A DNA stretch of 1,122 nucleotides from a phage. Of this stretch, positions 1 through 1,122 are shown one piece after another. The translations under genes and the position numbers were made by a program. How positions within the stretch are numbered: position 1 is the first letter of the stretch; each line of letters starts with the position of its first letter. The stretch lies in the sequence record OR846335.1. One strand, 5' to 3'. The notes beneath the pieces were generated by a model, which was not told the origin of the DNA, did not search any database, and worked only from the letters and a program-made list of their open reading frames with translations.

Positions 1-1053
1 GCGTACTTTCGCCAGGCTTTGCCACGGTGAAACGTCGTTGCCGTGAACCATCCGCTCGGTGAGATAATAGAGCGTGTAGTCAGCGGAAATGCCGATAACG
101 CTCATGCTCATCACCAGCGTCATCAGGTGTAATTCACCGAAAATCAATAAAGTGGCGACCGTTCCCGCCAGCGCGCCGATGCCGATGGAAATCACGCAAA
201 GCAGCAACGGGCGTAAAGAGCGGAACACCGCCACAGTCAGCAATATCACCCCCAGCAGCGTAGCCACGCCCAGGGTGGAGATATCCTGCTTCGCCTGTTG
301 GCTGGCGTAATCGCTGTAAAACACCGTGCCGCGCGAGAGCAACTGTGCCTGCGGGTAACGCGTTTTCAGATCCTTTTCCAGCGTATTCAGGGTCGTGATC
401 AGCTGGTGGGTTTGCTGCATATCAAACGACGATCCCGCCAGTTCGCCGTGCAGCAGATACCAGTAGTTGCCCTGGGGATCCTGCGTCACCAGCCAACCGT
501 CCATCAGCCGCAAACGCTGGCCGTTTTTCGCCATTGCCAGCTGCGAGCCGCGCATTAACATCAGCGGATCGTTTTGCAGCTCCTTGCCGCTTACGCCGGA
601 GAATGCGGAATAAAGCTGGGAGAGGATCCACTGTGCCTGCGCTCCGCCGCCGTTTTGCAGGCGGGCGCGGGTGTTGGGGTCAATCAGGCCGTTGCGATGC
701 TGCCAGAAAAACGCTCCCCACGCCTGCTGGCTGGCGGCATCCATTGGCCCTTTAACGTCGCCGAGCGCAGCGGATTTTTGCAGCAGCGTCAGCCACTCCT
801 GAGCGACCAAAGGATTAGCCTCTTTACCGGGGCTGACCAGCCACACCAGTTGGCGGTCAAGACGCTGCATAAAGCCGTCATTCAGCGCCGGAGGAATATC
901 GCCCATCGTCTGTTTGGGTAACATAGCCAGCACGCTACTGTTCAGCCGTGATTGCGGCAGCAGGATCAGCAACGCCACCGCCATGACCAGGCAGACTAGC
1001 CCCCATAACAGCGCGGGGCGTTTACTGGGCGGCAAAACGTTGGCGTTCGTCAT
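1..1053 (-). CDS. MMPL / RND-superfamily inner-membrane exporter, N-terminal 351 codons; partial, the 3' end continues beyond window position 1
   Basis: Hand translation of the minus strand from ATG (plus 1051-1053) gives 351 codons with no stop down to position 1; the nearest upstream in-frame stop is TGA at plus 1063-1065. Protein begins MTNANVLPPSKRPALLWGLVCLVMAVALLILLPQS (basic N-terminus then hydrophobic helix), continues with a ~220-aa mostly hydrophilic domain, then ISTLGVATLLGVILLTVAVF / RSLRP / LLLCVISIGIGALAGTVATLLIF / GELH / LMTLVMSMSVIGISADYTLYYL. This layout (TM1, large periplasmic loop, TM2-TM4 with a G-x-x-x-D-Y helix) is the established topology of RND/MMPL transporters. Family assignment rests on topology and motif recognition, not a database search. 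Confidence 0.85.
   Translation of the reverse strand, partial: MTNANVLPPSKRPALLWGLVCLVMAVALLILLPQSRLNSSVLAMLPKQTMGDIPPALNDGFMQRLDRQLVWLVSPGKEANPLVAQEWLTLLQKSAALGDVKGPMDAASQQAWGAFFWQHRNGLIDPNTRARLQNGGGAQAQWILSQLYSAFSGVSGKELQNDPLMLMRGSQLAMAKNGQRLRLMDGWLVTQDPQGNYWYLLHGELAGSSFDMQQTHQLITTLNTLEKDLKTRYPQAQLLSRGTVFYSDYASQQAKQDISTLGVATLLGVILLTVAVFRSLRPLLLCVISIGIGALAGTVATLLIFGELHLMTLVMSMSVIGISADYTLYYLTERMVHGNDVSPWQSLAKVR
61..282 (-). other. TM2-TM4 bundle of the exporter (residues ~258-331), including the G-I-S-A-D-Y motif (Asp codon at plus 79-81, Tyr at 76-78)
   Basis: Three hydrophobic helices are separated by very short loops (RSLRP and GELH). The last carries VIGISADYTLYYL, which resembles the conserved TM4 Asp-Tyr proton-relay motif described for MmpL3/HpnN-type MMPL transporters and the TM4 acidic residues of RND pumps. 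Confidence 0.6.
283..951 (-). other. Large soluble loop between TM1 and TM2 (residues ~35-257), predicted periplasmic porter-type domain
   Basis: About 220 residues of mixed, mostly hydrophilic sequence with several Trp and no Cys, flanked by hydrophobic helices. By analogy with RND/MMPL architecture this is the first periplasmic domain. Its boundaries are estimated by eye. Confidence 0.5.
955..1014 (-). other. Predicted TM1 / signal-anchor helix of the exporter (residues ~14-33, ALLWGLVCLVMAVALLILLP), preceded by basic residues K11 and R12
   Basis: An uninterrupted run of about 20 hydrophobic residues follows Lys-Arg in the hand translation, consistent with the positive-inside rule. No lipobox is present (residues before the Cys are G-L-V, not [LVI][ASTVI][GAS]). 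Confidence 0.6.
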
Positions 1054-1122
1054 CGGTCAGTTGCGCTGGCGTCAGTTGATGTTGGGTAAGAGCAATATCG
1101 GTGCGATCGCCCTGTTTATCAT
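1022..1122 (-). CDS. 3' end of the upstream minus-strand gene (C-terminal 32 codons plus TAA stop); product unknown; partial, the 5' end is beyond window position 1122
   Basis: Minus-strand frame from plus 1120 down to 1025 is open and reads DKQGDRTDIALTQHQLTPAQLTDDERQRFAAQ, ending at TAA (plus 1022-1024). It is in a different frame from the exporter and overlaps the exporter start by 32 nt. Only 32 residues are visible, so no product call is possible; the call relies on the open frame, same-strand operon-like arrangement and enterobacterial-type codon usage. Confidence 0.5.
   Translation of the reverse strand, partial: DKQGDRTDIALTQHQLTPAQLTDDERQRFAAQ

Follow-up and report, generated by a model that had tools for sequence, protein, structure and literature searches.

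A 1.1-kb sequence assigned to the apeL-apeM junction of the Escherichia coli aryl polyene cluster

The 1,122-nt stretch of DNA analysed here (the window) holds parts of two co-oriented genes, one of them encoding the N-terminus of a putative exporter, and the question it raises is what kind of gene cluster this exporter belongs to and what it may carry. The initial annotation had suggested an MMPL-type exporter within a lipid or polyene biosynthesis-export cluster. Comparison with near-identical genomes indicates that the window represents the apeL-apeM junction of the E. coli aryl polyene (APE) cluster apeA-R, also referred to as O-island 138 of O157:H7, with a probability of roughly 0.93, a figure that applies jointly to this assignment and to the best explanation as a whole. 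The early guess was right, and the ape cluster at this locus was already known.

Both genes are encoded on the minus strand (Table 1), a clarification of the earlier description of an exporter N-terminus preceded by 32 codons of a second gene, whose peptide was exact. Translation of the reverse complement from position 1120 yields the last 32 codons of apeL (DKQGDRTDIALTQHQLTPAQLTDDERQRFAAQ) and then a TAA stop at 1024..1022. The apeM frame opens with an ATG at 1053..1051, begins MTNANVLPPSKRPALLWGLVCLVMAVALLILLP and continues stop-free for 351 codons to base 1, corresponding to the first 45% of the gene. In the RefSeq annotation of genomes 99.7% identical to the window, the stop of a "LolA family protein" and the start of an "MMPL family transporter" are found at exactly the same positions. 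All 76 species compared keep the apeM ATG start, and 73 of them keep the 32-nt overlap between apeL and apeM. Translational coupling of the two genes is likely, given this tight operon junction.

Both frames are real coding sequence and not chance open frames. Comparison with orthologues gave dN/dS values of 0.05-0.12, indicating purifying selection, and 169 of 351 ApeM positions are at least 98% conserved in an alignment of 74 species. Open reading frames on the plus strand (e.g. 574..921, 115 aa) were dismissed as artefacts that arise antisense to a GC-rich gene subject to purifying selection. The window is without any non-coding feature: an Rfam scan at E-values up to 1 returned just a chance HEARO match (17 bits vs 83), no inverted repeats are present in the window, direct repeats are short and two-copy, and promoter- and terminator-like matches occur near shuffle expectation.

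Table 1 Positions of genes, predicted protein segments and notable residues in the window.
Feature	Position	Strand	Basis
apeL 3' end, LolA-like periplasmic carrier gene	1022..1122	-	Translation and RefSeq annotation
apeM 5' part, MMPL/RND-superfamily exporter	1..1053	-	Codons 1-351 of 772, running off the window at base 1
Overlap of apeL stop and apeM start, 32 nt	1022..1053	-	Frames and RefSeq annotation
Predicted TM1, ApeM residues ~13-33 (PALLWGLVCLVMAVALLILLP)	955..1017	-	Kyte-Doolittle hydropathy
First large loop/domain, predicted periplasmic, ApeM residues ~34-258	280..954	-	Hydrophilic stretch between hydrophobic segments
Hydrophobic block TM2-TM4, ApeM residues ~259-335	49..279	-	Hydropathy, Pfam match and alignment with HpnN 5KHN
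E137G (GAA to GGA), periplasmic domain	644	-	Difference from O157:H7
I273T (ATT to ACT), predicted TM2	236	-	Difference from O157:H7
D325-Y326 codons (GAC TAC), predicted TM4, candidate proton-relay pair	76..81	-	Conservation and HpnN alignment

By megablast, 824 of 5,426 complete E. coli genomes carry the window, always on the chromosome; O157:H7 chromosomes give the best match (99.7% identity), and none of the 5,426 genomes matches it at 100% identity. In O157:H7 chromosomes, an 18-gene cluster sits between yhhT and acpT. Gene order was read from approximately 15 kb in five E. coli contexts (two O157:H7, a swine strain, 83972 and CFT073) and runs: lipoprotein, methyltransferase, chain-length factor (CLF), LPLAT, ACP, ACP, COG4648, acyl-ACP synthetase, FabZ-like dehydratase, GT2, thioesterase, LolA, MMPL, DUF3261, ketosynthase, ApeP dehydratase, FabG2 and ketosynthase. 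This order equals that given in Table 1 of PMC8253772, where apeA-R corresponds to c1204-c1186 and c1191 to ApeM. The genomes carrying the window sequence therefore contain the FAS-II/type II PKS-like set that the initial annotation had proposed to look for, namely two ketosynthases with a chain-length factor, two ACPs, two dehydratases, the ketoreductase FabG2 and an acyl-ACP synthetase, as well as a lysophospholipid acyltransferase, a GT2 and a thioesterase. The flanks hold biosynthetic and carrier genes and not the unrelated housekeeping functions that had been named as contrary evidence.

The core of APE clusters has been defined as the ketosynthases apeO/apeR, the CLF apeC, the ACPs apeE/apeF, the dehydratases apeI/apeP, the ketoreductase apeQ and the transporter apeM (bioRxiv 10.1101/2020.12.19.423268). 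All of these are colinear around the 99.7-96.9% identical copies in the five E. coli contexts and in 77-80 of 80 species loci. More broadly, tblastn searches with 18 Ape proteins found 79 of the 80 enterobacterial species loci to be colinear, with ApeC-R present in 77-80. Since the window shows just apeL and apeM, we infer membership of the source locus from near-identical genomes; the most likely origin of the copy is the yhhT-acpT locus on the chromosome of a strain related to O157:H7.

The best-studied relative is the APE cluster of CFT073 (Johnston et al. 2021, PMC8253772), where ApeM (c1191) and ApeL (c1192) are encoded by the same genes in the same order with a 32-nt overlap at equivalent coordinates. 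The two copies are 96.9% identical at the DNA level, and 343 of 351 exporter residues are identical to the orthologous ApeM of CFT073 and 83972 (WP_000185758.1; 97.7%, eight amino-acid differences). While the closest relatives of the window occupy the yhhT-acpT locus, the copy of CFT073 and 83972 resides in an island, with a tyrosine integrase and IS remnants on one side in CFT073 and CDI/hemagglutinin genes on the other side in 83972. The E. coli CFT073 cluster, termed APE_Ec, is said to have been reported by Cimermancic et al. in 2014. O-island 138 of O157:H7 EDL933 shares 99.7% DNA identity with the window, is most likely the same locus and has AcpT immediately downstream; OI-138 (PMC3893438) and its cognate phosphopantetheinyl transferase AcpT have been described (De Lay & Cronan 2006, cited in PMC8253772).

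The cluster had also been supposed to be accessory and horizontally mobile. It is indeed accessory in E. coli, as seen from the 824 of 5,426 genomes, whereas the supposed mobility holds only in part. The yhhT-ape-acpT placement is common to most other Enterobacteriaceae, and K-12-type strains retain a 20-nt apeR remnant at the locus, a scar indicating that they lost the cluster by deletion. The copy at this locus is better explained by vertical inheritance and repeated loss than by a recent transfer. The second, island-borne copy of uropathogenic strains (CFT073/83972) and a few plasmid copies do show mobility. Plasmid matches were found in 9 of 72,556 records, about three or four of which seem to be genuine large plasmids (Enterobacter, Cedecea and Moellerella, the Moellerella plasmid with a short partial match only); the largest records (0.79-4.9 Mb) and a 1.6-kb fragment appear to be wrongly labelled chromosomes or pieces of assemblies. 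Base composition (GC content of 55.3% for the cluster, 52.7-53.7% for its flanks and 58.3% for the window) was set aside as a weak sign of horizontal transfer.

Three SNPs separate the window from O157:H7, two of which are nonsynonymous (E137G and I273T). Among 74 species, 98.6% have Ile at position 273 and 72% have Glu at position 137, and no species has Thr or Gly, respectively, at these sites. Because these are two derived changes at conserved positions, ApeM of the source strain may be less than fully active. The genes could thus be apeL and apeM as proposed, yet belong to a decaying or non-functional copy that has lost APE lipid export, and decay does occur elsewhere: O157:H7 strain 2017C-4109 carries internal stops and frame disruptions in apeD and apeH, P393-F10 retains a cluster remnant without apeM, and K-12-type strains show full deletion. 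On the other hand, the 351-codon apeM frame of the window is intact, relaxed selection cannot be deduced from just two substitutions, sequencing error explains singleton changes equally well, and the clusters of other O157:H7 and related strains are fully intact. The idea that the O157:H7 cluster is generally pseudogenised was rejected, as it is intact in O157:H7 PA20 and strain 1604D011. We regard a decayed source copy as improbable, though it fares best among the alternatives.

The encoded ApeM fragment has the expected architecture of an MMPL/RND transporter. This architecture comprises TM1, a large periplasmic loop and TM2-6 in the first half of a 12-TM protein, the second half lying outside the window. 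TM1 was called from 19-residue Kyte-Doolittle windows scoring at least 1.6 over residues 11-38, and is followed by the large loop, the hydrophobic block starting at residue 259 and a conserved acidic residue in predicted TM4. By analogy with RND/MMPL proteins, residues 34-258 would be located in the periplasm; mean column conservation is 0.87 in this loop across 74 species and 0.92 in the TM2-TM4 block, the part that matches MMPL, HpnN, HAE3 and SecF models. The D325-Y326 pair is invariant (100% in 74 species), and in the alignment with Burkholderia multivorans HpnN (5KHN) D325 falls opposite D344. A proton-relay role for this HpnN residue was reportedly described by Kumar et al. in PNAS in 2017.

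Within the APE pathway, dedicated ACPs carry the aryl polyene acyl chain while type II PKS/FAS-like enzymes build it, and at the inner membrane ApeD and ApeJ join the chain to a lipid anchor. ApeM, as an MMPL/HpnN-like RND transporter, may then pull the APE lipid out of the inner membrane at the expense of the proton-motive force and hand it to the periplasmic LolA-like ApeL, after which ApeN (DUF3261, LolB-like) would insert it into the outer membrane. There, the pigment protects against oxidative stress and promotes biofilm formation. We infer which way the lipid travels, what powers its transport and how it is handed on; going by the likeness to HpnN, ApeM probably uses the proton-motive force to move lipid away from the inner membrane and towards the outer one. 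It is conceivable, if somewhat short of probable, that ApeM-ApeL-ApeN form a self-contained inner-to-outer-membrane glycolipid route consisting of a proton-driven MMPL pump, a LolA-like carrier and a DUF3261 receptor, mechanistically distinct from the ABC-driven, lipoprotein-carrying Lol system as well as from Lpt, Mla and AsmA-like systems. Such a route has already been proposed in the APE literature, and what the window adds to the idea is only the invariant D325-Y326 pair and the conserved 32-nt apeL/apeM overlap.

Published work found the ape genes, including apeM, to be required for normal APE production. The CFT073 cluster expressed in E. coli makes pigment, and work on that cluster did not yield non-polar deletions of apeL and apeN (PMC8253772). 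In Xenorhabdus, ApeM has been classified as an APPE-family RND transporter, with LolA-like ApeL and DUF3261-containing ApeN proposed to move the APE lipid to the outer membrane (bioRxiv 10.1101/2020.12.19.423268). Transport by the three proteins is worded in both studies with "might" and "probably" (PMC8253772; bioRxiv 10.1101/2020.12.19.423268). The Xenorhabdus doucetiae cluster (Grammbitter et al.) uses the same apeB-R nomenclature in a different genus, its likeness to the E. coli cluster resting on nomenclature and proposed roles, and it is only for Xenorhabdus that the structure of the lipid (APEL) was solved.

ApeL, ApeM and ApeN might instead act in a Lol-like manner on the cluster lipoprotein ApeA, possibly APE-acylated, and not on a free APE glycolipid, given that ApeL is LolA-like, ApeN has been described as LolB-like and the cluster begins with a lipoprotein gene. 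However, the RND/MMPL relatives HpnN, MmpL3 and BstA carry lipids and are not known to carry proteins. Further, ApeA was detected by tblastn in just 58 of 80 species loci compared with 79-80 for ApeL, ApeM and ApeN, and the compound purified from Xenorhabdus is a free glycolipid that contains APE and not a lipoprotein (bioRxiv 10.1101/2020.12.19.423268). We regard ApeA as an improbable cargo, and retain the glycolipid as the presumed cargo of ApeL.

The LolA-like neighbour anticipated by the initial annotation was confirmed by RefSeq annotation and by Pfam analysis of the full-length ApeL orthologue, which scores 46.1 bits against a LolA cutoff of 23.6 and also exceeds the LolA_3 threshold. 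Its closest solved structure is the LolA-family lipocarrier 8T5J (E 1.2e-22). ApeL reaches 60.4 bits against the LolA equivalog model TIGR00547 (cutoff 112) and is thus LolA-like but not LolA itself, having the Pfam LolA domain while missing the equivalog cutoff. LolA of the LolABCDE pathway shares the LolA fold family with ApeL, but is paired with the LolCDE ABC transporter instead of an RND transporter. Family scans with the 32-aa ApeL tail alone gave nothing useful apart from one spurious TAL-effector match (E 0.1), and apeL was identified by DNA identity to annotated genomes. For the exporter, an MMPL-type assignment agrees with RefSeq and with the full-length ApeM orthologue, which passes Pfam MMPL (PF03176) with 33.2 bits against a gathering score of 20.5; the 351-codon fragment remains below it (18.9 bits, matched residues 251-328). 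The best family and structure matches of the exporter are HAE3 (E 2.5e-13), HpnN (TIGR03480, E 7e-13) and BstA, the best PDB match being HpnN 5KHN.

These matches also bear on whether the pair could stem from another lipid or pigment cluster, such as a hopanoid HpnN, xanthomonadin or flexirubin cluster. HpnN (PDB 5KHN, 6WU0) is the best solved-structure match, with TM2-TM4 aligned and the TM4 Asp kept, ApeL matches the flexirubin LolA2 model NF053544 (E 8.7e-15), and both xanthomonadins and flexirubins are aryl polyenes of related chemistry (bioRxiv 10.1101/2020.12.19.423268). Yet scores are far under the equivalog cutoffs for TIGR03480 (47.4 bits vs 751.85), the further HpnN model NF052374 (20 bits vs 1100) and NF053544 (55 bits vs 125). 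The similarity to HpnN is remote (E 2e-6), ApeM is approximately 100 aa shorter and, unlike the HpnN system, it has dedicated LolA-like and DUF3261 partners and ape genes as neighbours, with no hopanoid genes flanking apeL-apeM. ApeM resembles HpnN in its probable mechanism only. With gene content and order corresponding to apeA-R and the exporter fragment so close to CFT073 ApeM, an origin outside E. coli-type APE clusters is very improbable.

A housekeeping or HAE-1 (AcrB-like) drug-efflux RND pump with a membrane-fusion protein and outer-membrane channel, unrelated to any biosynthetic cluster, is effectively refuted: the weak likeness of the TM2-4 block to ACR_tran (E 0.11), OqxB and RND_permease_1 (E 0.003-0.005, 15 bits) and CmeB (E 0.008) is a generic RND-superfamily signal, HAE-1 models score 15 bits against cutoffs of 1250-2200, ApeM has 772 aa compared with about 1,040 aa for an HAE-1-type pump, no membrane-fusion-protein gene is annotated nearby in the five E. 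coli contexts examined, and the exporter lies between LolA-like and DUF3261 genes of a PKS/FAS-like operon, with colinear ape gene order in 79 of 80 species loci.

The practical value of identifying the apeL-apeM junction lies in correct annotation, as the two genes are apeL and apeM and not part of a drug-efflux pump. APE pigment lipids shield pathogens, among them the uropathogenic and enterohaemorrhagic types of E. coli, against oxidative stress and favour biofilm formation (PMC8253772; bioRxiv 10.1101/2020.12.19.423268).

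Two coding frames sharing 32 nt run through the window, and the tail peptide quoted for the upstream gene in the initial annotation exactly matches the minus-strand translation from base 1120. The three hydropathy regions of the apeM frame are those with which an RND/MMPL protein is expected to begin. The family signal of this fragment taken alone is weak, with 18.9 bits against Pfam MMPL (E 8e-4), under the threshold of 20.5 bits, and NCBIfam matches to BstA, HAE3 and HpnN at 1e-5 to 1e-6. Besides these two frames the window is without any feature: an Rfam scan gave a single chance-level match (HEARO, 17 bits vs. 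83), no inverted repeats were found in the window and its promoter- and terminator-like matches were close to shuffle expectation. Plus-strand ORFs were rejected as antisense artefacts.

Coding features of the window and base differences relative to O157:H7
Feature	Position	Strand	Detail
apeL (LolA-like) 3' end	from 1120, TAA stop 1024..1022	minus	reverse-complement translation DKQGDRTDIALTQHQLTPAQLTDDERQRFAAQ, then stop
apeM (MMPL) 5' part	ATG 1053..1051 to base 1	minus	351 open codons beginning MTNANVLPPSKRPALLWGLVCLVMAVALLILLP; leaves window at base 1
apeM first transmembrane segment	residues ~13-33	minus	hydropathy
apeM hydrophilic stretch	~225 residues, between transmembrane segment and hydrophobic block	minus	hydropathy
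apeM hydrophobic block	residues ~259 to 335	minus	hydropathy
Base difference	644	minus	apeM codon 137, E137G
Base difference	236	minus	apeM codon 273, I273T
Base difference	28		synonymous

By megablast, 824 of the 5,426 complete E. coli genomes (15%) carry a match to the window, chromosomally in every case, with a top identity of 99.7% to many O157:H7 strains. The matching sites are annotated as 'LolA family protein' and 'MMPL family transporter', and the RefSeq LolA stop and MMPL start coincide exactly with the frames of the window. The LolA-like carrier gene anticipated beside the exporter is the adjoining, overlapping gene. In O157:H7 2017C-4109, the pair lies inside a co-oriented cluster of 18 genes bounded by yhhT and acpT-nikA. 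These encode, in order, a lipoprotein, a methyltransferase, a ketosynthase chain-length factor, a lysophospholipid acyltransferase, two carrier proteins, a COG4648-type hypothetical protein, an AMP-dependent synthetase, a FabZ-like dehydratase, a GT2 glycosyltransferase, a thioesterase, the LolA-like and MMPL proteins, a DUF3261 protein, a ketosynthase, the ApeP dehydratase, the FabG2 reductase and a further ketosynthase. Gene order is identical in O157:H7 PA20, the swine isolate 1604D011, the urinary strain 83972 and CFT073, and agrees gene for gene with apeA-R in Table 1 of PMC8253772, which correspond to c1204-c1186 in CFT073 (Johnston et al. 2021, PMC8253772). There, ApeL is c1192, a 'LolA-like molecular chaperone', and ApeM is c1191, an 'RND family transporter' (PMC8253772). 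The O157:H7 copy is O-island 138 (PMC3893438), whose carrier proteins are the AcpT substrates according to De Lay & Cronan 2006, as cited in PMC8253772. The earlier observation is confirmed, and its interpretation as a polyene biosynthesis-export cluster is supported by these FAS-II/PKS-like flanks in near-identical genomes; the gene pair is a textbook piece of a cluster already described and experimentally studied.

In 2017C-4109, apeD carries a TGG-to-TGA nonsense change at codon 44 and apeH contains internal stops or a frame disruption (L001:13806-14627 and L001:15705-17066); since both genes are intact in PA20 and 1604D011, the lesions are either confined to this strain or artefacts of its assembly. 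Downstream of nikR, the same genome carries a sugar island of the GntR/PTS-galactitol type and, after it, a HicAB toxin-antitoxin pair, both unrelated to the ape genes (L001:32779-39069). Of the window's own substitutions, the residues Gly137 and Thr273 of ApeM were seen in 0 of 74 species, Ile273 being 98.6% conserved; variation peculiar to the strain, errors in sequencing or the onset of decay could each account for them. CFT073 and 83972 share one RefSeq MMPL protein (WP_000185758.1), from which the ApeM fragment differs at 8 of 351 residues.

Scored on a full-length orthologue, ApeM passes Pfam MMPL (33.2 bits) and matches HAE3 (2.5e-13), the HpnN model (7e-13) and BstA (5e-8), while the HAE-1 models OqxB and RND_permease_1 reach only some 15 bits where the cutoffs exceed 1,200. 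No membrane-fusion-protein gene was found in any genomic context examined, and neither alternative raised in the initial annotation, housekeeping flanks or an HAE-1 pump beside such a gene, therefore holds. The best solved structure is the hopanoid transporter HpnN (5KHN, E 2e-6), in whose structure alignment ApeM D325 pairs with HpnN D344; the D325-Y326 pair in predicted TM4 is invariant over 74 species. Kumar and colleagues are said to have described, in 2017, a proton-relay role for HpnN D344. ApeL scores above the Pfam LolA and LolA_3 thresholds and below the LolA equivalog cutoff, its nearest solved relative being the LolA-family lipocarrier 8T5J (E 1.2e-22; canonical LolA, E 2e-3). The PDB entries 8T5J, 9COZ and 9CWL, named 'outer membrane lipocarrier LolA family protein', are much nearer to ApeL than canonical LolA is. 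The 8T5J-type lipocarrier may itself be an ApeL orthologue; a literature search found no paper describing the 8T5J structure.

A scan using one genome per species recovered 80 loci from Citrobacter, Klebsiella, Enterobacter, Raoultella, Kosakonia, Leclercia, Lelliottia, Atlantibacter, Edwardsiella, Serratia and others, with 72% to 99% protein identity. In tblastn searches with the 18 Ape proteins, the ape order was colinear in 79 of 80 loci, and ApeC-R were found in 77-80 of them (ApeL in 80, ApeM and ApeN in 79 each). The apeM ATG is kept in 76/76 loci and the 32-nt overlap with apeL in 73/76, at least 98% conservation is seen at 169 of the 351 ApeM residues in the window, and dN/dS against orthologues is 0.05-0.12. 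Judged from these comparisons, apeL and apeM are functional genes on which purifying selection acts, and the conserved overlapping junction is consistent with co-translation of partner proteins. In Kluyvera genomosp. 3 YDC799 (L027), the tblastn ApeM match spans less than half of the query, and in one species locus the apeM frame ends early, at 391 codons; these may be the same locus, in which case apeM could be a pseudogene there although the rest of the cluster is complete. A record titled Vagococcus sp. WN89Y, labelled as a Firmicute (L042), contains a complete enterobacterial-type ape cluster that is 80% identical and has a homologue of yhhT upstream; contamination or mislabelling of the assembly is the likeliest explanation.

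The cluster had also been proposed to be accessory and horizontally mobile. Its accessory status stands, given the E. coli genome counts, and mobility applies only partly to the window's copy, in view of the yhhT-acpT locus, the K-12-type scar and a small GC contrast (55.3% vs. 52.7-53.7% in the flanks). All 5,426 complete E. coli genomes contain acpT, 570 of them with an apeR-acpT junction. Outside E. coli, the 80 species loci have yhhT upstream of the cluster in 52 cases or more and acpT downstream of it in 69. In K-12-type strains the yhhT-acpT gap is just 54 nt and keeps the final 20 nt of apeR directly before acpT, as in MT102 (L086:2467-2520), where they equal the O157:H7 apeR 3' end. 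This remnant is the scar of a deletion that removed the entire ape cluster, in line with the 'orphaned AcpT' story. Because acpT is universal in the E. coli set, the locus is common across species and the scar is present, yhhT-ape-acpT is most simply ancestral in Enterobacteriaceae and lost from most E. coli lineages. Given its 99.7% identity with O157:H7, the window most likely belongs to this locus.

A second version, ~96-97% identical, is the uropathogenic copy, island-borne in CFT073 and 83972, and the mobility evidence for the cluster is mixed. Within CFT073 1,127,702-1,160,000, one side of the cluster has a tyrosine integrase, remnants of IS1/IS66, an enterotoxin gene and sugar-utilisation genes in decay; in 83972 a truncated two-partner-secretion hemagglutinin/CDI (contact-dependent-inhibition) locus occupies the other side. 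The window matches 832 places in 825 E. coli records, so a few genomes have two copies, including E. coli 33F4 (NZ_CM147849.1) and about 6 others, presumably one at yhhT-acpT and one on an island. Plasmid carriage was seen in 9 of 72,556 records, several evidently mislabelled chromosomes. E. coli P393-F10 contains an island-borne remnant (L003:10948-13964) in which a truncated DUF3261 gene directly follows the thioesterase and LolA-like genes; apeM has been deleted and the ketosynthase is frameshifted, with CDI toxin/immunity genes and IS elements close by.

In the published model, 4-hydroxybenzoate is loaded on ACP by ApeH, extended by KS/CLF, KR and DH enzymes and joined to a glycerol-phosphate-GalNAc lipid by ApeD and ApeJ, after which ApeM (APPE-family RND), ApeL (LolA-like) and ApeN (DUF3261, LolB-like) carry the lipid to the outer membrane (PMC8253772; bioRxiv 10.1101/2020.12.19.423268). 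The APEL structure was solved for Xenorhabdus (bioRxiv 10.1101/2020.12.19.423268). APE-associated pigmentation is lost when most of the core genes for biosynthesis and transport are deleted one at a time; apeM deletion left APE-related metabolites undetected, yet low-level yellow pigment in the extract, and clean deletions of apeL and apeN were not obtained (PMC8253772). The transport steps, energy source and protein-to-protein hand-off of the ApeM/ApeL/ApeN route are putative. How these proteins move the glycolipid to the outer membrane is a family-wide question that the window does not advance; what the present analysis adds is the invariant TM4 Asp-Tyr pair and the conserved overlapping apeL/apeM junction.
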